Source: Nitrosopumilus sp.
GTDB taxonomy: Archaea; Thermoproteota; Nitrososphaeria; Nitrososphaerales; Nitrosopumilaceae
NCBI GenBank assembly: GCA_965238275.1
Contig: OZ250186.1
Location: 128,001 to 192,000 of the forward strand
Reading direction: 5' to 3'
Length of the DNA: 64,000 nucleotides
Of the stretch, positions 5,250-52,741 are shown in pieces. The notes beneath the pieces were generated by a model. The model was given only the letters and a program-made list of their open reading frames with translations, was not told the origin of the DNA and made no database searches. Positions within the stretch are counted from its first letter, which is position 1. The number at the start of each line of letters is the position of its first letter. Position numbers and translations under genes: made by a program.

Positions 5250-8200
5250 CTAGATGACGGCCTCGAAGGCATCCAATACCTGCATGGTCAGTATCGACCG
5301 GTTGGCATCCGACGTCCGGGCCACGATGTGGGTCAGATCCATGGCATCTGCAAACGTGATCCCAAACGTGATCACCTGCACGTTCCCGTCGGCGTCGATC
5401 GTGACTGCGGAGGATTCGACAAGATCGTGCGGATCGGTCACCGTGACGCTGCCCCGGTCGTACCTGACGTACGTGTCGCTGTCATAATATTGGTCGTCTG
5501 CACCGTGCAGGTTCAGGTACATAGTAAAGACTTCTATCGGCATGTCGCCATACACAGCAAAGCTGATGCTAGTCTCGTCCCCGACGCGCACTGTCTGCGG
5601 CTCGAGCGTGTTTCCGGTGCCAGTCAGCAGGTACCCGTAACCGTTTATCGATATGGGAAAGTCAAGCGCGCCGTCCATGATTATCGACGGGATGGGGGCG
5701 TTCGGGTCGTCAGCATAGTCGACGGGCTCGGGCGGGTGGATGCCCCACGCCCGCAGTATCCGGAGTTCGGACTCGTCAAAGTCGTCGGGATCCTGAAGTG
5801 TCATCTCGTCGGCCGGCGCGTCTAAAACGGCGGTCGCGGTGGTGGCAGATCCGGGATCCTCCAGGGATTCAGGCGCAGCGTGTCCGGGATACTCCCATGA
5901 CTCGATCGCCACAAAGTATTCCAAGGCGTTGACGAGCGTCTGCCTGTCCAGCGTGCCGTCTATGAACCACTTTGCGATATTCCTGAAGTAGTCGGGTACC
6001 GTCGTCCCCTGGAATCCGAACGCGCCCAGAAATTCCGCGTCATCGGCATATTCGGGGGAATAGCCGCCCCATGCCTTGAGTGTCTGGATTTCGGATGCGC
6101 CAAAGCCTCCCGCGGCGGGCTTCGGATCCGCCGTGATTTCTGCCGGTTCCGGTTCGGCGTCCGGTTCCGGCTCGACTGCCGGTTCTGTCAACGCCGTCGC
6201 CTCTGCCGGCATCGGCTCCGGCTCGACTGCCGCCTCCACCACCTCAAAGGCGTCGAGGACCTGCACCGTCAACAATGACAGGTCGGCGTTCCACAGCCGG
6301 GCCACCATGTTGGTCAGATCCATCTCGCCTGCAAACGTGATCTCAAACGTGATTACCTGCTTGTCCCCTCCGTCGGCCCGGATCGTGACTGTGGCAGACT
6401 CGATGAGACCGTGCGGGTCGACTATTTGGATGGTGCCGGCATCGTACCTGACGTAGGTGTCGCTGTCAGAATATTGGTCGTTTTCGCCGTGCAGGTTCAT
6501 GTACAGCGTAAAGTGCACTATCTGGACGCGGTCGTACACGGTAAATGAGATGGTGACGTTGTGTCCCGGGTGGATCGTCTGCGGCTCGAGCGTGTTCTTA
6601 ATGCCGCCAAGCAGGTACCCGTAGCCGTTTATCTCCAGGGGAAAGTCAAGGGAATCGTCTGCGGGCATGGGCGGGATGGGGGCGTCGGGATCGTGCGAAG
6701 TGGCGGTGTCTCGTATCTCCTGGGGGATCGACTGGAGGTACGATGCTATCGCGGAGTGGATGTCCAGTACCGGGACCGACGATTGCCGGGACTTGCTGGA
6801 TGAGGGATGGCTGACGGTTATGTTGTCGACTGTCCCAAGGGAATTGCCCGCAAGGTCCCGTATTCCAGAACCGGTGTATTCCAGGGTGAGCGCGGGCTTG
6901 CCGTCCGGGATGTCGCCGGAGAGGCCGAGCGTTATGGAGCTGCTGCCGGAGGGATCGGGGGCGTCGTCTACCGTTATGCTGTTGCCGCCATCGCCATCGC
7001 CGACGATGGATACTGACCAGTCAGCAGCGCCGGTGCTGCCGGTGACCCTCTCGGAGAACGACACCACGATTCCATCATTCCCGGACACCCGGGCAGACGA
7101 CACCGCCGGGTCAGTCAGGTCGACAGTCACGCTCGCGCTTGCGGCCCTAAACGTGTCGCCTTCCAGGGTGGTGACCGTGCGGGTCGGGATTGACACGGTC
7201 TGCCTGCCTTCTGAAAGGTTGTTCACGGTAACATCATACGAGGCAGCATTAGAGGACGGGGTTATGGCACCCACCGTTCCGCTGGTGGCGGTTACGGCAG
7301 AGACGAGCGTGCCGCGGTCAATGTCCCTGCCAAAGGAAAAGCCAAAGGATACAGTCTGGGAGTTTGTGACGGGAACGTCTGCGGTGATGTTGGCCGTAAG
7401 CGTTTGCGTGGGTATGCGGACCGTCACGGAGTCGGTGCCGGTGTTTTCCTCAGCACTGTTGTCAGTTACCGTGAGCCGGAAGGTCAGCGGGGTGGCAGAC
7501 GCCATTTCTGGCGTGAAGGTCGCGACTGCGCTGTTGACGTTGCTCAGGAATACCGTGCCTCCGCGGATCTGCTCCCACAAGTATGTCAGGGTGTCGCCGG
7601 GGTTTGGATCAAAGGAGGCAGAGCCGTCAAGGGTAACCGTTACGTCGGAGAGCGGGCGGTCCCTGACTGTCTGGTCGGGTCCGGCGCGCGCGACGGGACT
7701 GTTCCCGGTGGGCGGGGGAACGTCGTCTACCGTGATCGTGACGGTATCCGTGTCGGTGCCGCCGTTGCTGTCGTCTACGGTGAGGGTGAGCGTCACAGAG
7801 CCGCCTGACGTTTCCACGTCGGGTGCGGTAAACGTCGGGGACGCGGTGTTGGCGTTGTTCAGCGTAACTGACAGGCCGCCGGTTCGCGCCCACGAGTATG
7901 ACAGGGTGTCGCCGTCCGGATCAGAGGAGTCGGTGCCGTCAAGGGTGACCTGTTCCCCCTCGTTCACGGCCTGGTCGGGCCCGGCGTCCGCATTGGGGGC
8001 CTGGTTGGCGACCACGTTGTTTACCGTGATCGTGACGGTATCCGTGTCGGTGCCGCCGTTGCTGTCGTCTACGGTGAGGGTGAGCGTCACAGAGCCGCCT
8101 GACGTTTCCACGTCGGGTGCGGTAAACGTCGGGGACGCGGTGGTCGGACCGTTCAGGATGACTGGCAGGCCGCCGGTTCGCGCCCACGAGTATGACAGGG

Positions 8201-10727
8201 TGTCGTTGTCCGGATCAGAGGAACCGGTGCCGTCAAGGGTGACCTGTTCCCCCTCGCTCACGACCTGGTCGGGCCCGGCGTCGGCGTCGGGGGCCTGGTT
8301 GGCCTGGCCCGTCACGGTAATATCAAAGGCGGAGCTCAGCGCGTACTCGTTGACGTCGTTCCCGTCGGTTCCCGCCACGAACATCTTGTCGCCGTCAGAA
8401 GAAAACGCGAGGCCGACGGGGGAGGTATCCTGGTCACTGACTGAAAACGAGTCCGTAAAGTTGGCAGTGGTGATGCTAAAGGGAGTAGACAGCGCGTACT
8501 CGTTGACGTCGCTCCCGGTGGCTCCCACCACGAACATCTTGTCGCCGTCAGAAGAAAACGCGAGGCCGACGGGGGAGGTATCCTGGTCACTGACTGAAAA
8601 CGAGTCCGTAAAGTTGGCAGTGGTGATGCTAAAGGGAGTAGACAGCGCGTACTCGTTGACGTCGCTCCCGGTGGCTCCCACCACGAACATCTTGTCGCCG
8701 TCAGAAGAAAACGCGAGGCCGACGGGGGAGGTATCCTGGTCACTGACTGAAAACGAGTCCGTAAAGTTGGCAGTGGTGATGCTAAAGGGAGTAGACAGCG
8801 CGTACTCGTTGACGTCGCGCCCGAAGAGTCCCGCCACGAGCATCTTGTCGCCGTCAGAAGAAAACGCGAGGCCGGCGGGGAAGGTATCCTGGCCACTGAC
8901 TGAAAACGAGTCCGTAAAGTTGGCAGTGGTGATGCTAAAGGGAGTAGACAGCGCGTACTCGTTGACGTCGCTCCCGGTGGCTCCCACCACGAACATCTTG
9001 TCGCCGTCAGAAGAAAACGCGAGGCCTCGGGGGAGGTCATCTTGGGCACTGACTGAAAACGAGTCCGTGAATACTGCCGTAGAGACGTCAAAGGTGGCCG
9101 CAAACGCGGTGCCGGACGTGTCCTGGACTGCACCCGGATCGATCGTGAGTTCGGGAGTGGTCAGCGCGTTCACGGCGGCGAGTTTGGCAGTAGTCAGCGT
9201 AAAGGAAACGGTGGCCGAGCCCGAAGTGGTGCCAAGCTCCGCTGCAGACAGCGTGACGCCGCCGGTGGACGTGTTTTTCTCCCTTATGTGGAACTTTGTC
9301 GGGTCTATGTCCGTAGACGGCGTGGCGTCTATGATTTCGCTGAACGTTACCGCCAGCACGCCGGTGCCGCGGTCAAGCGTGGCAGAGACAAACGTGGGCG
9401 GCTGGTTGGCCTGGCCCGTCACGGTAATATCAAAGGCGGAGCTCAGCGCGTACTCGTTGACGTCGCGCCCGGTGGCTCCCACCACGAACATCTTGTCGCC
9501 GTCAGAAGAAAACGCGAGGCCGACGGGGGAGGTATCCTGGTCACTGACTGAAAACGAGTCCGTAAAGTTGGCAGTGGTGATGCTAAAGGGAGTAGACAGC
9601 GCGTACTCGTTGACGTCGCGCCCGGTGGCTCCCACCACGAACATCTTGTCGCCGTCAGAAGAAAACGCGAGGCCGACGGGGGAGGTATCCTGGTCACTGA
9701 CTGAAAACGAGTCCGTAAAGTTGGCAGTGGTGATGCTAAAGGGAGTAGACAGCGCGTACTCGTTGACGTCGCTCCCGGTGGCTCCCACCACGAACATCTT
9801 GTCGCCGTCAGAAGAAAACGCGAGGCCGACGGGGGAGGTATCCTGGTCACTGACTGAAAACGAGTCCGTAAAGTTGGCAGTGGTGATGCTAAAGGGAGTA
9901 GACAGCGCGTACTCGTTGACGTCGCGCCCGAAGAGTCCCGCCACGAGCATCTTGTCGCCGTCAGAAGAAAACGCGAGGCCGGCGGGGAAGGTATCCTGGC
10001 CACTGACTGAAAACGAGTCCGTAAAGTTGGCAGTGGTGATGCTAAAGGGAGTAGACAGCGCGTACTCGTTGACGTCGCTCCCGGTGGCTCCCACCACGAA
10101 CATCTTGTCGCCGTCAGAAGAAAACGCGAGGCCTCGGGGGAGGTCATCTTGGGCACTGACTGAAAACGAGTCCGTGAATACTGCCGTAGAGACGTCAAAG
10201 GTGGCCGCAAACGCGGTGCCGGACGTGTCCTGGACTGCACCCGGATCGATCGTGAGTTCGGGAGTGGTCAGCGCGTTCACGGCGGCGAGTTTGGCAGTAG
10301 TCAGCGTAAAGGAAACGGTGGCCGAGCCCGAAGTGGTGCCAAGCTCCGCTGCAGACAGCGTGACGCCGCCGGTGGACGTGTTTTTCTCCCTTATGTGGAA
10401 CTTTGTCGGGTCTATGTCCGTAGACGGCGTGGCGTCTATGATTTCGCTGAACGTTACCGCCAGCACGCCGGTGCCGCGGTCAAGCGTAGCAGAGGAGAAC
10501 GTGGGCGGCGTCTGGGCGTGCGCTTCCATTGGGTAGTCGATGAAGATTATGTCGGCTGCGAGGAATGCCACGGCCACGCATGCCAACGCGACATGCAGCC
10601 AAGCCCTGCGCCTGGTAGAAGATCCTCGTTCCGGATGGGTTGCTGCATAATTTTTATGCCGAAAACTGATATCATAATGGCTATTATGCACCGTAGTTTC
10701 GACGTTATAATGAATCCGGGCGCCCAA
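5250..10727 (-). CDS. Giant secreted/surface protein, 1825 aa: signal/TM segment, 2x[Ig-like domain + five 50-aa beta-propeller-like blades], 3 PKD/REJ-like domains, duplicated C-terminal beta domain
   Basis: Hydrophobic N-region, GLAFSSDGDKMFV blades, ADAGPDQ...VTLDG..SSDPD..LSYSW PKD motifs, two LDFP..INGYGYLL..NTLEPQT domains. Confidence 0.92.
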   Translation of the reverse strand: MGARIHYNVETTVHNSHYDISFRHKNYAATHPERGSSTRRRAWLHVALACVAVAFLAADIIFIDYPMEAHAQTPPTFSSATLDRGTGVLAVTFSEIIDATPSTDIDPTKFHIREKNTSTGGVTLSAAELGTTSGSATVSFTLTTAKLAAVNALTTPELTIDPGAVQDTSGTAFAATFDVSTAVFTDSFSVSAQDDLPRGLAFSSDGDKMFVVGATGSDVNEYALSTPFSITTANFTDSFSVSGQDTFPAGLAFSSDGDKMLVAGLFGRDVNEYALSTPFSITTANFTDSFSVSDQDTSPVGLAFSSDGDKMFVVGATGSDVNEYALSTPFSITTANFTDSFSVSDQDTSPVGLAFSSDGDKMFVVGATGRDVNEYALSTPFSITTANFTDSFSVSDQDTSPVGLAFSSDGDKMFVVGATGRDVNEYALSSAFDITVTGQANQPPTFVSATLDRGTGVLAVTFSEIIDATPSTDIDPTKFHIREKNTSTGGVTLSAAELGTTSGSATVSFTLTTAKLAAVNALTTPELTIDPGAVQDTSGTAFAATFDVSTAVFTDSFSVSAQDDLPRGLAFSSDGDKMFVVGATGSDVNEYALSTPFSITTANFTDSFSVSGQDTFPAGLAFSSDGDKMLVAGLFGRDVNEYALSTPFSITTANFTDSFSVSDQDTSPVGLAFSSDGDKMFVVGATGSDVNEYALSTPFSITTANFTDSFSVSDQDTSPVGLAFSSDGDKMFVVGATGSDVNEYALSTPFSITTANFTDSFSVSDQDTSPVGLAFSSDGDKMFVAGTDGNDVNEYALSSAFDITVTGQANQAPDADAGPDQVVSEGEQVTLDGTGSSDPDNDTLSYSWARTGGLPVILNGPTTASPTFTAPDVETSGGSVTLTLTVDDSNGGTDTDTVTITVNNVVANQAPNADAGPDQAVNEGEQVTLDGTDSSDPDGDTLSYSWARTGGLSVTLNNANTASPTFTAPDVETSGGSVTLTLTVDDSNGGTDTDTVTITVDDVPPPTGNSPVARAGPDQTVRDRPLSDVTVTLDGSASFDPNPGDTLTYLWEQIRGGTVFLSNVNSAVATFTPEMASATPLTFRLTVTDNSAEENTGTDSVTVRIPTQTLTANITADVPVTNSQTVSFGFSFGRDIDRGTLVSAVTATSGTVGAITPSSNAASYDVTVNNLSEGRQTVSIPTRTVTTLEGDTFRAASASVTVDLTDPAVSSARVSGNDGIVVSFSERVTGSTGAADWSVSIVGDGDGGNSITVDDAPDPSGSSSITLGLSGDIPDGKPALTLEYTGSGIRDLAGNSLGTVDNITVSHPSSSKSRQSSVPVLDIHSAIASYLQSIPQEIRDTATSHDPDAPIPPMPADDSLDFPLEINGYGYLLGGIKNTLEPQTIHPGHNVTISFTVYDRVQIVHFTLYMNLHGENDQYSDSDTYVRYDAGTIQIVDPHGLIESATVTIRADGGDKQVITFEITFAGEMDLTNMVARLWNADLSLLTVQVLDAFEVVEAAVEPEPMPAEATALTEPAVEPEPDAEPEPAEITADPKPAAGGFGASEIQTLKAWGGYSPEYADDAEFLGAFGFQGTTVPDYFRNIAKWFIDGTLDRQTLVNALEYFVAIESWEYPGHAAPESLEDPGSATTATAVLDAPADEMTLQDPDDFDESELRILRAWGIHPPEPVDYADDPNAPIPSIIMDGALDFPISINGYGYLLTGTGNTLEPQTVRVGDETSISFAVYGDMPIEVFTMYLNLHGADDQYYDSDTYVRYDRGSVTVTDPHDLVESSAVTIDADGNVQVITFGITFADAMDLTHIVARTSDANRSILTMQVLDAFEAVI
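7720..8300 (-). repeat. Two near-identical 294-bp PKD-domain repeats
   Basis: Direct comparison of the two PKD units; boundaries approximate. Confidence 0.85.
8295..10507 (-). repeat. Intragenic tandem duplication, period 1107 bp, each unit holding five 150-bp repeats
   Basis: Near nucleotide-identical blocks; shadow ORFs are offset by exactly 1107 (8336/9443). Confidence 0.92.
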
Positions 10728-42160: not shown

Positions 42161-43836
42161 AGATCCTATGCAGAATGCGCCTGACGCGGCAAACCATAAA
42201 ATCACGTCCGAACTGCGCTGGGCATGGCCGTATCTGAAAATCCCACCTGCCACATATTTTACAAATTCGTCTTGTTCGTCCATGTGAAAAATCTAGTTTC
42301 CAAGAATGAAAAGCAAGACATGTCCGGCGGATGTGCGGCATCTGTCCACCAGAGCGGCAGATTGTTTCATGGTGAATTGGAGGGGGAGATTCATGCGAAT
42401 CCGAATGCTATGCGCGGCATTTTTGCACTGCTGCATCTTTTACTCCGTCCAGGCGACTCGTGCCGCCCTGCCTCAGAGGCGCGCCCTTTCTTCTGCCAGC
42501 CTCTTGAGAAGGTCCGCGTCCCTGAGTTTTATTTCGTCCCACATCAGATCCTGGTTTACCATTCCTGCAATCGCGTTGAGCTCGTCGTTGTACTCCTCTT
42601 CGGTGCCGTCGTACGGGTCAGTCAGCCTCTTGTACTGCTTCAGGTTCCCTATGACGTGCTCTATGGCCACCCGGGAGCTGTTTACCCTCTGGTTGTAGGC
42701 GCGCTGCTTCTTTGTCAGGCCACCTGTCTTTTTGTCGGCACCAGGCTTTTTCTTGTACGGGTGCCTGATGTGCCATTCTGGATATTCCTCCCTTGTCCCC
42801 TGGTAGCCCTTGTCGGTCAGGACGTCTGGCTTTTCCTTTTCGGGCACGTCCTTCTGGCCCATCCTTGCAGTGATGATTCCAAGGTTTGGCGGATCCTCGT
42901 TGAGCAGGGTCTTGTCGTGGACGCTGCCCGGAACTGTCTTGCTTATCGCAACTATCACGCGGCGCTTGTTGATCACGATGTTGGTGTTGTACGTGTGTGC
43001 CTTCTTCTTGCCAGAGTACGTCTTTTTGCGCCTCTCCTTGTCCGCGGATCTTCTGACCCGGTTGTGCGTGCCGTCCACCATCAGTTCTCCTCCCCTCCTG
43101 CCCGGTATTATCTTCTTGCTCTCCTCAAGCGTCCTGGCCTTTTGTGCAGCCTCGCTGATTTTGCGCGGCGCCGTGTCTATCTCGCCGAGCAGCCTGGTCA
43201 TCAACGGGAGATACCTGGAGACGGTGGCCTGGTCAACGCCAAGCATCGTGGCCAGGGCTTCCTGCGGTATGCTCAGCCTTGACCGAAACAGCCACAGCAG
43301 GTACGCGTGCCTCAGGGGCAGGATGCGCCTGCTTCCGGAGTTTTTTGATCTGCTCCCAACTTCCCAAAAGAGCGCAGTCTCCCCGTTCCGCTCCAAAAGC
43401 TCCTTGAGGCGGTTCAGCGTGTGGTCAAACCTTTCCGGGGTGCGCAGCGTCATGGCGTGCAGGAATTCAGGATATTTTATGATGTCGTCAAGAAACCTAG
43501 ACGTGATGGTCCAGTGGTCAGTCAGGCGTTCCTTGAGGGCCTCGCCCTTCTGCCGGTCTGTCCTGCGTGCCTCCCTGAGGGCCCTGATCCTCTGCCTGTG
43601 GAGTTCTCCTGATTCCCTGAGCGACTCGTTTTCCTGCCGTATTCTCTGCACGATCGGTTCTGCCAGCATTGCCATCACGGTGTGGCGTAAAGACCACCGA
43701 TCTTAATGTTTCGGTTGCCGTTCCTGGATTTCCATGTTTTACGGTTCTGTGAATATTCGACTGCATGTGGTGCTGCATGTAGGAATAACCCAGTTTAATT
43801 CAGTTTTTTAGGTCAGGCACATTCTGCATGAGATCT
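42161..43836 (-). mobile_element. IS5-like (DDE_Tnp_4) insertion sequence
   Basis: 25-bp TIR AGATCCTATGCAGAATGCGCCTGAC vs AGATCTCATGCAGAATGTGCCTGAC; 3-bp TSD GAT (42158-60 / 43837-39). Confidence 0.9.
42473..43678 (-). CDS. DDE_Tnp_4 transposase, paralogue of 19013..20383
   Basis: GVDQATVSR, VDGT, YSGKKK, DKGYQG and RVAIEHVIG motifs. Confidence 0.92.
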   Translation of the reverse strand: MMAMLAEPIVQRIRQENESLRESGELHRQRIRALREARRTDRQKGEALKERLTDHWTITSRFLDDIIKYPEFLHAMTLRTPERFDHTLNRLKELLERNGETALFWEVGSRSKNSGSRRILPLRHAYLLWLFRSRLSIPQEALATMLGVDQATVSRYLPLMTRLLGEIDTAPRKISEAAQKARTLEESKKIIPGRRGGELMVDGTHNRVRRSADKERRKKTYSGKKKAHTYNTNIVINKRRVIVAISKTVPGSVHDKTLLNEDPPNLGIITARMGQKDVPEKEKPDVLTDKGYQGTREEYPEWHIRHPYKKKPGADKKTGGLTKKQRAYNQRVNSSRVAIEHVIGNLKQYKRLTDPYDGTEEEYNDELNAIAGMVNQDLMWDEIKLRDADLLKRLAEERARL

Positions 43837-44895
43837 GATGTTTATGGCAGCATTGTGGTCCCTGCCCAAGACTAGACCGCAGGAATCGCAAACGTGCGTT
43901 CTTTGTGTCAGGGTTTTTTTGATTATCTTGCCGCAGCCTGAACATCCCTGGCTTGTCTGGTGCGGTGGTACCTTGCGAAACAGAATACCAGCGTTTGCAG
44001 CTTTGTATTCCAGTTTTTGAAAAAACGAGTACCATGATGCGTTTGAGATTGATTTTGCAAGTTTGTGGTTTTTCAGCATGTTTTGTATGCTGAGATCCTC
44101 GACGAATATGGTGTCGTATTTGTCAACGTACGCCCTTGATGCCTTGTGCTCAAGGTCACGCCGCTGGTTTGCTATCTTCTTGTGGATGGCAGCAAGCCTG
44201 TTTTTCTGCTTGTGCCTGTTGGAAGAGCCTTTGGTCTTTCCTGACAGGCGTCGTTGCGCCCTTTTGAGTTTCTTTTCTGACTTTTTCAGGAACTGTGGAT
44301 TGTCAATCTTGTGGCCGTCAGAATCACATGCAAAGTTGGTCAGGCCAACGTCAATGCCGACTATTTTCTTTCTTTCCAGTGAGCACCTGTCAGTCAGCAG
44401 CACGTCCTCACAGACTGCAGTCGCAGACCATTTGCCTGTAAGATCCTTTTTCACTACGACACCCTTTGTCTTTCCGGCTGTTTTGCGGTGGATCACGCAC
44501 TTGATCTTGCCGATTTTTGAGAGTTTCAGGGTGTCGTCTGGCAGAAAACAGAACCCGGACTGGTTGTAGTTTATGCTCCTGTGCCTTGATCCTGGCTTGA
44601 ATCGTAACCTGCCAATTTTTTTGCCCTTCTTTGATGCCGAAGACAGGACCTTGATGTTGTTATAGAACTGCCACAGAACCATCTGAGCCGCCTTGCTGTA
44701 CAATGGCGTATTTTTAGGAACCATGGCAGGAATCATCCTTTGCATCTCGTCAAATTTCATCTTGTGCCCTTCCTTGTATGCCAAACGTGATTCGTATACA
44801 AAGTCATTGTACAGCCTGCGGCACGCCTCCAAGGACTCGTCCATACGTGCCTGTTGTGTTTTTGTCGGATACGGGCGAAACTTGAAACTCTTCAT
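43813..44895 (-). CDS. tnpB: TnpB RNA-guided endonuclease with its C-terminal tail displaced by IS insertion
   Basis: FKFRPYP HTH, RuvC GIDVG / VEDL / RDHNAAINI, and TSQGCSGCG...CDSCG zinc finger. Confidence 0.93.
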   Translation of the reverse strand: MKSFKFRPYPTKTQQARMDESLEACRRLYNDFVYESRLAYKEGHKMKFDEMQRMIPAMVPKNTPLYSKAAQMVLWQFYNNIKVLSSASKKGKKIGRLRFKPGSRHRSINYNQSGFCFLPDDTLKLSKIGKIKCVIHRKTAGKTKGVVVKKDLTGKWSATAVCEDVLLTDRCSLERKKIVGIDVGLTNFACDSDGHKIDNPQFLKKSEKKLKRAQRRLSGKTKGSSNRHKQKNRLAAIHKKIANQRRDLEHKASRAYVDKYDTIFVEDLSIQNMLKNHKLAKSISNASWYSFFQKLEYKAANAGILFRKVPPHQTSQGCSGCGKIIKKTLTQRTHVCDSCGLVLGRDHNAAINIRSHAECA

Positions 44896-46632: not shown

Positions 46633-46761
46633 AACCTCATACCCAGAATTTCGTTTTGGCACCACACATGAGACAGGACGTCCTTGCACGCCGCACCCCA
46701 TGGAATCCTAGGCAGAACCTCACAAGGGAATAAATTTCAGGATGCAACAACACCACCACCG

Positions 46762-47511
46762 TTGAAAATAGAAGAGTACCTCCAGACGCTGCCAGAGAAC
46801 CTGCTTAGCGGGGAGGACATACGGGTGTCAGACAGGATGCTAAGGGAGATCTTTCGGTTTGTGGATCTGGGTCCAGGCGACGTCTTTTATCATCTGGGGT
46901 GCGGGGATGCAAGGAGTGCGTGCATTGCGACAGACGAGTTCCAGGCGGCAAGGGCCGTTGGAGTAGACAGCAGTGCAGAGAAGATACGCCTTGCACAGGC
47001 CAATCTTGGGGACAGGGTACAGATGGTGTGCAGTGATGTCAGGGAGGCAGACATCTCAGATGCCACGGTGGTGCTTTTCTGGTTTGCAGACGAGGATGTC
47101 ACAGATGCCATGATGGAAAGATTTGAGACGCTGAGTCCCGGAACCAGGGTGGTAACCGTGTGGGGCCCGCTGCCTGGATGCCTTCCGGACGGCGTGAGAT
47201 TTCCGTACATCATCAACAGGGCGCCGTTCAGGAAGGCTGCAAGCGTCCAGGAGCAGGTGCTTGCAGTGTTTGGGGTAAAGTGTGTGGATTTTGTCACGGC
47301 CTGGGAGTTTGCCGAGAGGTACACAAAGGCCACAGGCTCGCCTGATGTAAAGAATGACAGGTTTCTGACCATCATACAGACGCTGGTGATATGGACTAAT
47401 GCAAAAAGGCTCGGCGTTGCATGCGGGGACGAGGTGCCAGAACCCATCAGGACGTACGTCAAGCTCATGAAGATGAACTTTGACATAGACTTTGAGCACC
47501 TGTTGGAGTGA
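46762..47511 (+). CDS. SAM-dependent methyltransferase-like protein
   Basis: FYHLGCG, AVGVD and DISDATVV motifs. Confidence 0.85.
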   Translation: MKIEEYLQTLPENLLSGEDIRVSDRMLREIFRFVDLGPGDVFYHLGCGDARSACIATDEFQAARAVGVDSSAEKIRLAQANLGDRVQMVCSDVREADISDATVVLFWFADEDVTDAMMERFETLSPGTRVVTVWGPLPGCLPDGVRFPYIINRAPFRKAASVQEQVLAVFGVKCVDFVTAWEFAERYTKATGSPDVKNDRFLTIIQTLVIWTNAKRLGVACGDEVPEPIRTYVKLMKMNFDIDFEHLLE

Positions 47512-47593
47512 TTCTGGGAATCGCCGGCATTCGGATCCTGTGACAGTCCTGCCAGATATTCATCCCAGATGCAAAAACCAGGTACGGTATGTT

Positions 47594-49342
47594 CTAGGAT
47601 TTTCCGTCTCGTATCCTCGCCTCGGCATTATCGGTGTGTATCGGTATCGGTACTGACTTGAGCCCCGTGGCATCATGGCTGACAACCAGCCAGTCACCCT
47701 TTTGGAACTTGAAGGTCTCCTGCAGGATGTCCGGGGTTGTGCCAAATGCGTCTATCACCCTCTGCCGGTCCGATATCCTTGGCAGCTTGCTGATAAAGTA
47801 GGTATGCGGCTGCGCCATTATGCTGGTATTCAGGTAGGTGACCCTCTGCGTTGCAATCAGCACACCCAGGCCAAACTTCCTGCCCCTTCTTGCCAGGGTC
47901 TCGACTGCTGCAGTGGATGTTTCGTATGTGCCGGTGGCGTTCTGCGGAATAAACTCGTCTGCCTCGTCAAACACAAACAAGGTAAGCGGCAGGTGCAGTC
48001 CGCTCTTTCGCCTCTCAGAGTATACGCTGTGCCTGGAGTCGGCAGCAATGTCGTAGGCAAACCGGCGTATCTCGTCTTCGTTCTCCCCCTGGATTATGTA
48101 AAGGGACGCACCCTTTCCTCCGCTGACAAGGGGATCCACCAGATCCTTGTTCCTGTCCACCTTGAACTCCTCTAGTGGTTCAAAAAAGTCAGCAGAGTTT
48201 GCGGCTGCTGCAATCCACGCCTCCAGCAGTGTCTGGGAGCCTGATTTTTGCGCAAGGCGGGATTTGTTTTTGAGATGGTCTGTCAGGGCGTTCAGATTGT
48301 CCCGGGTAAACGGCATGGCTCCGAATATCTGATAGATCTCCTTTGTGATCCTCTTGGATTCCATGGAGACGTAATGTTCCGGGGTATGCTCGTCCAGAAA
48401 CTGGCCTATCGTTGAATGCTTCTGCACATGCAGCCGTATCTTTCCTGCAGAGAACAGTCTTGAAAAGATCTCTTTGTACCTCTGCTTCATGGCGGGGTTT
48501 CGCAGCGGGGCAGGCATGTGCATGCTGCCGATAAACGCATCCCGGGCGCCTGCCAGATCCTTCCTGTCAGTAAGATACTGCCTGACCTGCATGGGGAGCG
48601 AGTCCCTCCCAAGAAAGCACATGTAACCATTCACCCTGTCCAGCACGTCTGCAAGCAGCGCGGTGTACTCTCCCATCAGATCAAATATGACCACGTTTAC
48701 CGGTATGGGGTTCTTCTCCAGAAGCTTGTGCACCAGCGTGCTGACAAGGTTTGACTTCCCGGTGCCGGTGTACCCGAACACCCCGATGTGCGTCCGGACC
48801 ATGTCCTCGACTTGCAGGTCTATATCCACGCCACCCTTTTGGATGTGCCCGACAGTCATGGTCTTGTCATCCAGGCCGCTGTTGAAGATCATTCCCACGA
48901 GATCGGCACCCAGAATTCTGGCAGGTCCGCCAAACATGGGCATCTGCGACTCCTCCCGGATGCGCAGGTCAGGATCCTCTACAAGTTCTTGTCCCGTATG
49001 GGTGGCACTCACCTTGATCTTTGTGGTCTCCTCAGAAGAGACGTCGTCTTGGCTCAGAAAATCCTTGTACACCTCGTCCCGGGTCTTTTCAAGAAACACG
49101 GGGTATCCTGACATCTGGTCCCCCGCCGTGGCATAGTGAAAGGGCATAACCGAGGTGATGCTCAGGATGCTGTAGTGTTTGTCCCCGTGCGAGTATGAAA
49201 AGCTGGGCACGGATATGAGATCCCCTGCCTTCAGCTCGTTCATCAGCTTTCTGGTATAGTCAAACCATACCGTGTACACGTATCCGTGGTTCTCGTCAAA
49301 TCCGACATCCATCAGCCTGCCGGTCTCTTCGCGGAACGTCAC
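47594..49342 (-). CDS. herA: HerA/FtsK-superfamily ATPase (HAS barrel plus DUF87)
   Basis: Walker A GYTGTGKS, IFDLMGEY, Walker B FVFDEAD, ARRGRKFG and IATQR; GTG start overlaps the nurA stop. Confidence 0.9.
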   Translation of the reverse strand: MTFREETGRLMDVGFDENHGYVYTVWFDYTRKLMNELKAGDLISVPSFSYSHGDKHYSILSITSVMPFHYATAGDQMSGYPVFLEKTRDEVYKDFLSQDDVSSEETTKIKVSATHTGQELVEDPDLRIREESQMPMFGGPARILGADLVGMIFNSGLDDKTMTVGHIQKGGVDIDLQVEDMVRTHIGVFGYTGTGKSNLVSTLVHKLLEKNPIPVNVVIFDLMGEYTALLADVLDRVNGYMCFLGRDSLPMQVRQYLTDRKDLAGARDAFIGSMHMPAPLRNPAMKQRYKEIFSRLFSAGKIRLHVQKHSTIGQFLDEHTPEHYVSMESKRITKEIYQIFGAMPFTRDNLNALTDHLKNKSRLAQKSGSQTLLEAWIAAAANSADFFEPLEEFKVDRNKDLVDPLVSGGKGASLYIIQGENEDEIRRFAYDIAADSRHSVYSERRKSGLHLPLTLFVFDEADEFIPQNATGTYETSTAAVETLARRGRKFGLGVLIATQRVTYLNTSIMAQPHTYFISKLPRISDRQRVIDAFGTTPDILQETFKFQKGDWLVVSHDATGLKSVPIPIHTDNAEARIRDGKS

Positions 49343-51156
49343 TTGAACCTCCTCTTTGCCCGAACAGACGTAGACCACGGCTTCATGTAGTGGCTGTCCA
49401 TCATGGTGCTGCTCTGGATCATCGGTTGCACCATCCTGGCAAATGTCTTGGCTCCAAGGTCTGCCTTGTGCAGCGGTTCTGGATACCCCATGACATCAGG
49501 GAACCTGTTGGAGGCAGTACTGTAAAGGAACAGCGTCACAAAATCCAGAACGGGATTGGCCACGGTGTTGTCAACATCTACAAACGGGCGGACATCTAGG
49601 GTCGCCTCGGCTGCCTGGGCGCAAATCGGATGTTTGCCGGTCTTCTCCGAGTCAAACTCGGGCAAAAGCACTCTGTCTACGAACAGTCCGTGGTTGAATA
49701 TTGTCTTTCCCTTCTGCCTGACAAGGTACAGCATGGTCAGGTGCCTTGCAAACATTCTCTCGGTGGTTGGTATGGTCCTGATGGCGATTCTCTGGGGGTC
49801 GGTTCTGGAGGTCAGGTAGAGTGTCTGGAAGACCGAATCATACTCTATGGTGGTCCACGGCGCATCAAGACTGGCATCTGCAATCTGCAGGCGCTCCATT
49901 GCCAGCCGGTCCGACCACAGCAGGCCGCGCAGATCAGATATTTCATAGTCTGAATAGTGTCCCTCCTTTCTCATCACCCCAAGATAGTTTCTGGTAAAGT
50001 ACTTTGATGCCGAGTCCTTTACGACGCCGACTGCCAGGATGTGCTTTTCCCAGCACACCTCAATCATTCTCCGAAGCAGGGTCGATATCATAAAGCCGAT
50101 GTCTGCAGCAGTGATCCATCTTCCCGAGTATGTCATGGCTGCAACATCCCTGTCCCGGAACAGCCGGGTGCACAGGTTTACGACCAGCCCCACCACAAAC
50201 CCCCAGGAATCCTCATGCCTCGGGTTGAGGCTTACGACATCCGTTGACGGGTCGTGGTACAGGCAGCCGGGATGTGTTGTGCCATCAGGAGTCTCAGTCT
50301 CCCCCATGAACTGCTCAAGCACGCGCCTTACCTGGGATTCTGGCTGGCCAAGCAGCGTGGCAATGCCGGACACCCTGGCCTCCCGGTCAGGGGAGGAGAA
50401 TACCTCATAGAGCATGCGGCTTGGTATGTTGAAGAATCCCCCCGACTTTGAGGGAATCTCAAGCATGGAATTGTACGGGTGGGATCGGCAGATGATGGCG
50501 TCTGCCATTGTCAGCTGCCGGCCATCATACTCGTAGGAGTGGTTTACCATCGGAATTTCGTTGATTGGAGGGGTGTGCCAGTGCAGCGCACCGCTGAGAG
50601 TCTGATCCCAGAGCAGTATGTTCGGGGGTCTGTCAGATGTAACCTCGCTGTACAAAAGGTAGACTTCTGCCAGTATCATCAGCCTGTTGTGTATGTCGGT
50701 CATTGAAAACTGGCTCTGGTCGTCAAGGGTTATGCCAGATATCCCGTCGAGTTCTGCAAACGGAACCGGAACATATGCAACCATGCTCAGCTCGTCATTG
50801 AGGTTGCGCTTTTCATACATGACAGAGTCGGTGCCGTCAAGCAGGAACGTGCCCCTGACCCCGTACGAGGCTGCAAAGAACACGGCGTACTCTTCAAGCT
50901 GAATCTTCTCAGATGTCCCGTCCACTGCCACAAACGCAGGACTGTCTGTTCCAAAAAAGTCCCGGAACCTCTCCAGCAGGTTTCCCTTCCATTCCCGGTC
51001 TGCCATCTGGTCCTTGTACCTTCTGACCAGCCGGTTCAGGAATGTGTCGTAAAACTCATCAGTCCTGCCGCTGCAGGAGTCGTATATTCCGCGCTGCCTG
51101 TCCTGTGAGGCTGCAAGCGCCTGGCTATATTTGGCAAACGTCTCAGACAGGCTCAC
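49339..51156 (-). CDS. nurA: Long NurA-family nuclease (605 aa) with an internal insertion
   Basis: AVDGT, LAEVYL, LLWDQTL, GVVKDS and GYPEPLHKAD motifs; adjacent herA. Confidence 0.8.
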   Translation of the reverse strand: MSLSETFAKYSQALAASQDRQRGIYDSCSGRTDEFYDTFLNRLVRRYKDQMADREWKGNLLERFRDFFGTDSPAFVAVDGTSEKIQLEEYAVFFAASYGVRGTFLLDGTDSVMYEKRNLNDELSMVAYVPVPFAELDGISGITLDDQSQFSMTDIHNRLMILAEVYLLYSEVTSDRPPNILLWDQTLSGALHWHTPPINEIPMVNHSYEYDGRQLTMADAIICRSHPYNSMLEIPSKSGGFFNIPSRMLYEVFSSPDREARVSGIATLLGQPESQVRRVLEQFMGETETPDGTTHPGCLYHDPSTDVVSLNPRHEDSWGFVVGLVVNLCTRLFRDRDVAAMTYSGRWITAADIGFMISTLLRRMIEVCWEKHILAVGVVKDSASKYFTRNYLGVMRKEGHYSDYEISDLRGLLWSDRLAMERLQIADASLDAPWTTIEYDSVFQTLYLTSRTDPQRIAIRTIPTTERMFARHLTMLYLVRQKGKTIFNHGLFVDRVLLPEFDSEKTGKHPICAQAAEATLDVRPFVDVDNTVANPVLDFVTLFLYSTASNRFPDVMGYPEPLHKADLGAKTFARMVQPMIQSSTMMDSHYMKPWSTSVRAKRRFK

Positions 51157-51421
51157 AGCATATCTCCTGATGCATCATAATTCATGGATATTATGTTGTG
51201 AGTTTTATTTAAGAAGGATCGCGGTTTTGCAGTTTTCAATCCGGGTTACGCCAGTCACTTTTTCGGGCGACATTACGCAGTCACCGTCATCCCGGATCAA
51301 ATCCCAAGTCATGTAAGACCGCTCCGTGTCTGCACGCTAAGATGGGGGTGAACAATTTTGGAGACATGCAATGAAATACAACATATGTAATCCTTTTATT
51401 TTGTACAGCAGAATACAGTGT

Positions 51422-51769
51422 ATGGAAGGCAGGCTCAACATCAACGTATCAGCAGTGGACTACGATAAGACTAGCAAGGCACTCATTCACCAGTTGGCCC
51501 TGCTAGAGGAGATGGTTCACGCAGAAGACGAGTTTGCCATGACTGACTCGGAGTTTGCATTCGGATGGCACTTTTTTGTCCTGAGTATCAACAGATCACT
51601 CATTCAAAAGCTGGCAGAGACGATGGGGCCAGACTATAACACCCTGAAGGGAAAGAACATCGAGAAGAAGTTTCTGACATGGCTGACAAGGAACGTGGAG
51701 TCAAAATCTCCCAGGTTCAAGCTTGCCATCAAGGAAGAGATGGAGTCAAGCAAGTTCGGCATATTCTAG
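51422..51769 (+). CDS. Hypothetical protein
   Basis: Host-like codons; upstream TTTTATTT promoter-like element. Confidence 0.8.
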   Translation: MEGRLNINVSAVDYDKTSKALIHQLALLEEMVHAEDEFAMTDSEFAFGWHFFVLSINRSLIQKLAETMGPDYNTLKGKNIEKKFLTWLTRNVESKSPRFKLAIKEEMESSKFGIF

Positions 51770-52137
51770 TACCGGCTACTGCACCATCACCCTGGATTTG
51801 TGCACGTGTGGGTTCTGTTGCATCCTTTTGCAGCAACGCCACTTTATGAATCACTAATGAGGCAGTGGCAAACAGGACAATGTCGAATTTCCCATCAGGT
51901 CAGGTGACTGCCCATGTCTTGCCGGAATGAATAACCATTCAGGACTGCATCCCTCGGGCCTTGCTGCATGATGACATAATACCGCCTGCGATTCTGCGTT
52001 CTGAAATAGAAATTCTGCGTATACGGAGCAGGCGCCTAGATTTCAGGTCCATGCCTAAAAATTGACCGGGACATGTGCCTGTGCAGACAGTTACCAATCT
52101 ACATAGATTATTATAGTAAGACACATACAGTCAAACA

Positions 52138-52599
52138 GTGAGATTAATAGCAAAGGTTGGCATCATCATAGGAATCATCATCGCAGTAATAGTAGTAGCC
52201 GGCGCGGCACTGTTCTACACAACAATAAGCATGATAGAAGAGCAGATGGGAATCGTTTTACCTGACTATTTTGAACAGATGGTTCTGGATGTGGATCACG
52301 CAGACCTGGTCAGGAACAACTCGGAATACGTCGGCGAGGTGATAAAGGGAACGGGGCAGATAATCAACATCGAGGAACGATCCAGTGAAGGACAGGCCTA
52401 TTTGATAGACGCAGGAGATGGGCAATACTATCTGATGTACAGTCCCCGGATCAGTGATGCTAAGATGCAGTGTGCGCTGTTCTATGGGACGGTAACAGGG
52501 CTTCAAAAGATGGGTCTGGTATCGGGCGACACGGTGTCAGCAGTGGTGCTCAATCAGAAATACATCGCATTCTCTCCTGCTCCAGATTCATTCAACTAG
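52138..52599 (+). CDS. Membrane-anchored protein, possible OB-fold
   Basis: N-terminal TM helix; DLVRN..Y.GE.I...G.I...YGTV.G pattern. Confidence 0.7.
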   Translation: MRLIAKVGIIIGIIIAVIVVAGAALFYTTISMIEEQMGIVLPDYFEQMVLDVDHADLVRNNSEYVGEVIKGTGQIINIEERSSEGQAYLIDAGDGQYYLMYSPRISDAKMQCALFYGTVTGLQKMGLVSGDTVSAVVLNQKYIAFSPAPDSFN

Positions 52600-52668
52600 C
52601 CTGCAACCCCCAGAAACCATCATGCACGCATGCCAAACGTATCCTGCCGATGCAGAATAATGTGTGTA

Positions 52669-52741
52669 GGCCCTCGAGGGGAATCGAACCCCTGTCCGGG
52701 GATCCACAATCCCCTATACTCACCACTGTACTACGAGGGCC
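52669..52741 (-). tRNA. tRNA-His(GTG) with encoded G-1
   Basis: GCCCTCG/CGAGGGC acceptor, GGGGA-TTGTGGA-TCCCC anticodon arm, GTTCGATTC T-loop. Confidence 0.96.

Follow-up and report, generated by a model that had tools for sequence, protein, structure and literature searches.

A two-gene long NurA–HerA module in a Nitrosopumilus genome as a probable minimal degrader of foreign DNA

Ammonia-oxidising archaea are abundant, and little is known of their antiviral equipment. The subject of this analysis is a pair of genes in the genome of Nitrosopumilus sp. (2.22 Mb, single contig, OZ250186.1), located in a stretch of 64,000 nucleotides (nt) that is referred to below as the window; coordinates are window positions unless prefixed C1, which marks positions of the genome. 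The pair encodes a long nuclease of predicted NurA fold, 605 amino acids (aa) in length, and a HerA-type ATPase of 582 aa. It is an accessory, imported unit, distinct from the HerA–NurA–Mre11–Rad50 repair machinery, and on our analysis it is probably a minimal, ATP-driven degrader of foreign DNA. The family to which it belongs has the habit of adjoining DNA-marking enzymes, as would the destroying arm of restriction-modification (R-M)-like immunity, and the window carries the minimal form of it, without a dedicated mark. The case for an antiviral or anti-plasmid role is circumstantial and draws on the marking enzymes, R-M genes and a TIR protein beside relatives. In the proposed mechanism, which takes the solved HerA–NurA complexes as its analogy, a HerA hexamer would load on DNA and use ATP to pump the duplex into a NurA dimer, which would cut both strands; the target would most likely be incoming linear or otherwise exposed foreign DNA. 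A fast-evolving winged helix within the nuclease would probably serve as the selectivity element, and the circular chromosome might be spared because it has no free ends, or through an unlinked host modification, or through regulation.

The nature of the nuclease emerges from its predicted structure. The window protein matched no family at E≤0.01 and itself had no match in Pfam, NCBIfam or PADLOC; the Pfam NurA model (PF09376), searched against the genome at E≤1, found the canonical gene only, and it was weakly matched by 31 of 44 long-NurA relatives at E≤0.1 (best 1.4e-5). A profile search against PDB sequences returned a chance match (E 0.3), and hhalign gave a probability of 4% against the canonical NurA of the same genome, so that the relation to NurA does not appear from sequence alone. 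Full-length relatives of about 600 aa number 81, and an AlphaFold2 model built on an alignment of 44 sequences reached a pLDDT of 85.5 and a pTM of 0.87. When this model was compared with the PDB by Foldseek, the ten best matches were all NurA. T. kodakarensis NurA stood at 12.1–15.4, P. furiosus NurA at 13.5–13.9 and chain G of TdpAB at 12.8, and generic RNase H-like folds (EndoV, Argonaute PIWI) came after these at about 10. The predicted fold is therefore that of NurA, as the initial annotation had supposed from motifs. The modelled protein consists of an N-terminal helical part (residues 1–70), RNase H-like core I (71–190), an insertion (191–312) and core II (313–585), and its much greater length in comparison with typical archaeal NurA, already remarked upon in that annotation, is due to the helical part and the insertion, which place it about 250 residues above the canonical form. 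Six residues are invariant in the 44 sequences: D79 (in AVDGT), E164, D184 (WDQT), D381 (KDS), H563 and D566. D79, E164, D184, H563 and D566 sit on core elements of the model, and their order makes these five putative counterparts of the published catalytic residues.

A winged helix-turn-helix is predicted within the insertion, at residues ~244–312, on the basis of the full-length model. The elements assigned by DSSP (H244-254, E259-261, H262-269, H273-284, E299-302, E307-310) follow the winged-helix order of helix-strand-helix-helix-strand-strand, and the local Foldseek matches are regulators of the IclR, MarR and RepE types; both agree with the original impression of a winged element at this place. 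This winged-helix region is the least conserved stretch of the family, with a mean majority-residue fraction of 0.32 as against 0.61–0.63 in the cores. Its alignment profile gave five listed PDB matches, none significant (E 0.3–1.9): four transcriptional regulators and the histone acetyltransferase KAT6A, some of them presumably winged helices.

The ATPase is readily assigned. It matches PF01935 (DUF87/HerA) at 4.4e-19, with 69.9 bits against a cut-off of 23.2, and thus belongs to that family; it also matches the PADLOC model PDLC01055 at 5.7e-72 over residues 24–573 and the solved HerA chains of the PDB at E ~1e-13. In the 40 HerA partners of the family that were aligned, the core residues of Walker A and Walker B (Table 1) and a block of arginines are invariant. 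The protein stays under every NCBIfam cut-off for HerA (62.7 bits against 970 for NF040819), and it has weak matches to TrwB/FtsK models. The order is nurA followed by herA, and a 4-nt overlap (GTGA) couples herA translationally to nurA; the herA open reading frame (ORF) has an AGGAGG of its own. The coupling of the two ORFs, their lengths and the AGGAG at 7 nt were confirmed as first described. Nothing beyond chance was found by way of promoters or terminators around the pair.

A search for a separate canonical operon had been proposed at the outset, and a complete one lies at C1:1318500-1324821, encoding NurA (362 aa), HerA (521 aa), Mre11 (419 aa) and Rad50 (845 aa). It is 1.14 Mb from the window pair, which is thus not the only one of the genome, and it is there, with a nurA and a herA of their own, that the mre11 and rad50 genes noted as missing beside the pair are found. 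The window pair shows neither the linkage nor the equivalog-level similarity that characterise herA-mre11-rad50-nurA. In hhalign only the Walker regions of the two HerA proteins align, and this, together with the 4% for NurA, indicates that the window proteins are not recent copies of the canonical ones. The proposal of an accessory nuclease-motor system is accordingly upheld by the canonical operon, by the patchy and non-syntenic occurrence of the pair described below, and by the NurA fold.

The two genes were acquired horizontally. The long NurA, used as a query, found no homologue in 16 sampled genomes of the same genus, nor in 23 of a second sample, and homologues occurred in 3 of 200 genomes of the same family, at 31–33% identity. 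Of the flanking genes, the methyltransferase (46684-47511) and CorA recur in every one of 20 other genomes sampled from the genus, and in six relatives (G183, G212, G205, G206, G208, G204) the methyltransferase directly precedes the small gene that starts at 51423 in the window; the adjacency of these two flanks in relatives had been named as a check, and it speaks against vertical, syntenic inheritance of the pair. In the closest genome relative, G110, whose flanks show 84–88% protein identity, DNA homology ends at 47511 and restarts at 51423, so that the insert spans 47512-51422; it holds two genes only. In G110 this junction is occupied by some 28 kb of different DNA (L076:2221-16201 and L077:1-14264) with a TraG/VirD4-like coupling protein, a split MCM helicase, DUF5131, GNAT and a gene resembling an A-type ATPase subunit. 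This DNA has the look of an integrated mobile element, and its presence makes the site an insertion hot spot. Both junctions are bridged by contigs from four sequencing runs of four studies (in two cases the strain is diverged by about 1%), which shows that the insertion is not an assembly artefact; one run also shows the G110-type sequence at 47511. A joint that skips 47632-51386 in one X1 contig has a side of 29 letters, under the trust limit, and was not used as an empty site. No terminal repeats or att-like sites beyond chance were seen at the insert. The closest NurA relative (L010, 62% identity) comes from a genome in which the methyltransferase/small-gene junction is intact, and its pair lies about 155 kb from that junction, where its neighbours are a phosphoglucomutase-type gene on one side and a serpin on the other and a transposase is close by; the two-gene unit has thus landed in different places.

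The family of long NurA with HerA, itself undescribed, is thinly spread, with members in many phyla of both archaea and bacteria. When 185,579 species, each represented by a single genome, were scanned for the pattern, 56 loci emerged, which among archaea fall in Nitrososphaerota, Bathyarchaeia, methanogens, ANME, Thermoplasmatota, Asgard and Aenigmatarchaeota, and among bacteria in Cyanobacteria, Armatimonadota, Chloroflexota, Bacillota, Acidobacteriota, Planctomycetota, Nitrospirota, Aquificota, Actinomycetota and Patescibacteria. HerA follows NurA directly in 52 of these loci, two of the four exceptions being at a contig edge, and the same arrangement holds for 25 of 28 remoter relatives from the phylum. 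The NurA tree (61 rows, quick LG+G4, with ORFs under 540 aa excluded, i.e. L022, L041, L044, L058, L059, L060 and L063) does not follow taxonomy. In it, the window protein belongs to a clade of ten sequences on a long stem with 100% support, formed by the window, L010 and eight metagenomic proteins of 589–605 aa (48–61% identity). Genomic context is available for two of the ten (the window and L010), and at the metagenome level there is one close locus, L083, on a 4.2-kb contig. Decayed members also occur: in L058, L060 and L063 the NurA reading frame is split into several, no HerA was found in L048 or L060, and L063 has its HerA in two parts.

An indication of function comes from the neighbours of relatives. 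Clustering of the flanks revealed two further conserved genes beside nurA-herA, the first encoding a DUF6884 protein of about 150 aa just upstream of NurA and the second a TGT-like protein of about 400–480 aa, often fused to DUF6884, just downstream of HerA. Hidden Markov models built from these proteins have matches in 34 of the 56 loci, and Pfam adds one more (L017, with a TGT and the ArcS-core domain DUF5591), for 35/56. As for the other 21 loci, eight are too short to judge, one (L042, Asgard) has a C5 cytosine methylase directly after HerA, and the remaining 12 have no marking gene in their available flanks, some with one short flank. A C5 DNA methylase flanks the pair in four loci besides the 35. 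Among 17 partner proteins scanned, those of L019, L014 and L054 are true DpdA (361–489 bits against the NCBIfam cut-off of 200), and most of the others resemble DpdA or ArcTGT weakly; for the DUF6884 proteins the matches are to the PADLOC candidate PDC-M57A and, weakly, to DpdC. According to passages of PMC5699537 and bioRxiv 10.1101/2025.10.09.681413, DpdA is a TGT homologue that inserts preQ0 into DNA, and DpdC, of the DUF328/YaaA family, turns this preQ0 into dADG; DUF6884 is described in part of PMC11701544 as a distant YaaA relative with a DNA-binding cleft. The window NurA shares 31–39% identity over its full length with the NurA of these TGT/DUF6884 cassettes and can be regarded as their orthologue.

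Within the family of the window organism itself, the three other genomes that carry the pair (L080, L081 and L082) belong to a clade different from that of the window and have an operon-like order of C5 methylase, long NurA, HerA and Eco57I-type methylase, which is followed by a BsuBI/PstI-type endonuclease in L081 and L082; in L080, a TIR-domain (ThsB-like) gene lies nearby. At least two chemically different marking modules, as well as R-M genes, are thus arranged around one core, a pattern expected of the destroying arm of an R-M-like system, and this suggests that the family is the restriction arm of R-M-like systems with interchangeable marks. Pairs without such partners are found in a syntenic clade of Armatimonadota beside MutS/MutL and in one locus of Patescibacteria, and the bare two-gene form seems viable on its own. 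In L018, L026, L028, L030 and L035 (Armatimonadota and unclassified bacteria) the bare pair stands between MutS and an HpcH-type aldolase; MutL is also present in L026 and L028, and L018 has an N6/N4 DNA methylase of 846 aa just upstream.

Candidates for a mark in the window genome were considered. The adjacent methyltransferase was rejected: it is present in all 20 other same-genus genomes of its sample, the long NurA had no homologue in the same-genus samples of 16 and 23 genomes, and it resembles a protein-lysine methyltransferase (62.7 bits, under the cut-off); it is a conserved host gene and not a partner. The single C5 methylase of the genome (C1:102276-103355, 385 aa) lies about 72 kb from the pair among other DNA methylases, and its 26% identity to the NurA-linked methylases is no more than the latter share among themselves; this value is uninformative as to a role in trans, and nothing ties the methylase to the pair. 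The surrounding cluster (C1:~100000-105100; L094, L099, L100), in which the C5 methylase is flanked by N6-adenine methylase genes, one in a frame of 956 aa, may be an R-M island. The window pair does not qualify as a DpdA/DUF6884-linked cassette, which has a TGT/DpdA-like and a DUF6884 gene beside the pair.

Several observations weigh against a defensive role for the pair. There is no marking gene beside the window pair or the L010 pair, and the window insert is without any. Searched at E≤1, the genome gave no DUF6884 match, and its one TGT is of housekeeping type (260 bits, C1:882513), a gene content that offers no ready account of self/non-self discrimination. The immediate neighbours are housekeeping genes and not a defence island; PADLOC models, run against the 44 long-NurA members at E≤1, gave scattered chance-level rows only; and the insert has a guanine-plus-cytosine content of 0.534 as against 0.527 for the genome (60th percentile), i.e. 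no compositional sign of recent import. The synteny of the bare Armatimonadota pair beside MutS/MutL would fit a role in repair as well.

Such a role is the first alternative: the pair could be a second machine for DNA end-processing or repair, in this case a paralogue specialised in resecting or clearing certain DNA structures on behalf of the host. Its fold and partner are those of the repair HerA–NurA, the bare Armatimonadota pair is conserved between MutS/MutL and metabolic genes, another pair (L043) lies near RecQ, an RPA-like OB-fold protein and an MrfA-like helicase, and the window flanks are housekeeping genes. This is nonetheless unlikely, given that the genome already has the full canonical operon, that the lack of any homologue in the 16 and 23 same-genus genomes sampled makes the pair dispensable for the lineage, and that a scattered distribution with recurrent linkage to DNA marking and R-M would be unexpected for a core repair function.

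A second alternative regards the pair as a leftover: a cassette of modification and restriction would have been stripped of its marking genes, and the orphaned restriction half would now be silent, attenuated or drifting. Most relatives do have a marking gene (35/56 plus four) where the window has none, the family includes decayed loci (a fragmented NurA in L058, L060 and L063; L048 without HerA), and none of the 24 sequencing runs listed is recorded as RNA. We consider it very unlikely all the same: both ORFs are of full length and keep every family-invariant catalytic and ATPase residue, the ten-sequence clade keeps lengths of 589–605 aa at 48–62% identity, and the closest relative, L010, is also a bare pair at another site, all of which points to selection on the two-gene form. 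FtsK/HerA-type pumps serve transfer and packaging roles in plasmids and viruses, and a function of this kind (DNA processing or packaging for the transfer or replication of a mobile element) could be imagined from the hot spot with its TraG/VirD4- and MCM-bearing element in G110, from the insertion sequence (IS) elements 3 kb off and from the weak TrwB/FtsK match of HerA, yet it is highly improbable for an insert that contains two genes and neither an integrase nor a replication gene nor terminal repeats, and whose homologous loci, in the flanks examined, are not inside recognisable plasmids or proviruses.

The degradation of foreign DNA thus remains the preferred reading, and comparison with known systems places the pair among HerA/NurA-type machines. 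It shares fold and partner type with the canonical archaeal HerA–NurA (S. solfataricus 2ygk; P. furiosus 3tai/3tal; T. kodakarensis 9x1l-9x1n), and differs from it in the ~250 additional residues, in the inserted winged helix and N-terminal helical part, in the want of mre11/rad50 alongside, in the order of nurA then herA with the 4-nt overlap, and in having no detectable sequence relation to the NurA of its own genome. A possible precedent is TdpAB, which An et al. reportedly described in 2025 as belonging to the phosphorothioate system TdpABC; its chain G (PDB 8wfd) resembles the window NurA, as a fold match only, and its TdpA is, we assume, HerA-like. The mark of that system is a phosphorothioate made by TdpC, unlike the marks beside relatives of the window pair. 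TdpAB is named the restriction part of TdpABC in passages of PMC12914056 and PMC13223576. Compared with the Dpd system (dpdA-K), as presented in parts of PMC5699537, PMC10164549 and bioRxiv 10.1101/2025.10.09.681413, the loci of relatives have DpdA and a DpdC/YaaA-related DUF6884 protein as neighbours, with NurA-HerA in place of the restriction genes and DpdB and DpdD-K not seen; the window itself is without any Dpd genes. These mark-coupled machines (TdpAB and the DpdA/DUF6884-linked cassette) are nearer to the pair than SIR2-HerA and DUF4297-HerA, which the initial annotation had offered as analogues. Both of the latter are likewise two-gene modules of a HerA ATPase and one effector, whereas the effector of the window is a NurA nuclease and its HerA scores far under the cut-offs of the NCBIfam anti-phage HerA models (NF042943, 72.3 bits against 800; NF042944, 64.8 against 850), so that it belongs to neither.

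HerA and NurA near type III CRISPR loci have also been catalogued (clusters 57/58 in part of PMC6546367). The PADLOC model derived from that cluster is the one matched by the window HerA over its full length (5.7e-72), but the long NurA finds no counterpart among the PADLOC NurA models, and the pair is flanked by housekeeping genes; the 64-kb window holds no CRISPR-like array, and no scan for cas genes was made. A defensive side, the destruction of foreign DNA, is suggested for canonical HerA–NurA as an idea only in passages of the discussion of PMC12977600. In our literature search no paper turned up in which NurA-HerA is connected with DpdA, 7-deazaguanine or transglycosylases; the search found nothing on PDC-M57, and PMC10853773 has no mention of NurA, TGT or deazaguanine.

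Tentatively, and as a possibility to which we give rather less than even weight, the bare pair could be a complete archaeal immune system in which the winged helix tells foreign from own DNA (by ends, by sequence or by a host-wide modification), the same machine being a universal 'restriction cartridge' repeatedly joined to different markers (7-deazaguanine writers, C5 methylases) in archaea and bacteria. If it is an immune module, it would be a compact and testable two-gene system and would link an archaeal repair nuclease, HerA–NurA, to defence. The family may represent a natural experiment in module swapping, with its core accompanied by 7-deazaguanine writers, by C5 methylases or by nothing; it could show how one restriction machine reads chemically different marks, and it may identify the restriction partner of DpdB-less DpdA enzymes. 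To this the window contributes a mark-less clade and a clean insertion that interrupts conserved synteny in a genome whose canonical operon is intact, and its analysis the C5-methylase-linked variants within the same archaeal family. The features of the locus are listed in Table 1.

Table 1. Features of the nurA-herA locus, in window positions.
Feature	Position	Strand	Basis or remark
Long NurA-fold nuclease, 605 aa (predicted fold)	49339..51156	(-)	GTG start
HerA-type hexameric ATPase/translocase, 582 aa	47594..49342	(-)	Pfam, PADLOC and PDB matches
Shine-Dalgarno-like AGGAG	51164..51168	(-)	7 nt ahead of the nurA GTG, read directly
Predicted winged helix-turn-helix inside the nuclease, residues ~244-312	50221..50427	(-)	Full-length structure model
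HerA Walker A GYTGTGKS, residues 190-197	48752..48775	(-)	G195, K196 and S197 invariant in 40 HerA partners
HerA Walker B acidic pair D459-E460	47963..47968	(-)	Invariant in 40 sequences
Inserted 3.9-kb segment, only herA and nurA inside	47512..51422		Homology break points against relatives

Other features of the window and the genome may be mentioned. An IS pair at 42473-44895, 3 kb from the gene pair, is made up of genes for a DDE_Tnp_4 transposase of 401 aa and a TnpB/OrfB_IS605 protein of 360 aa; another pair like it (416 aa and 393 aa) is found at C1:786928-789387, beside a TraG/VirB4-like P-loop fragment of 340 aa, which is the source of the third DUF87 match of the genome. A segment of about 0.9 kb (51770-52655), with a membrane-like ORF of 153 aa (52138-52599) adjoining tRNA-His (52668-52741), is missing in G110 and other relatives, and a contig of run X7 joins 51769 straight to 52656. 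Farther off, an ORF of 1825 aa on the minus strand (5250-10727) contains tandem repeats of 153 nt and 294 nt with 92–95% identity and probably encodes a repetitive surface protein.

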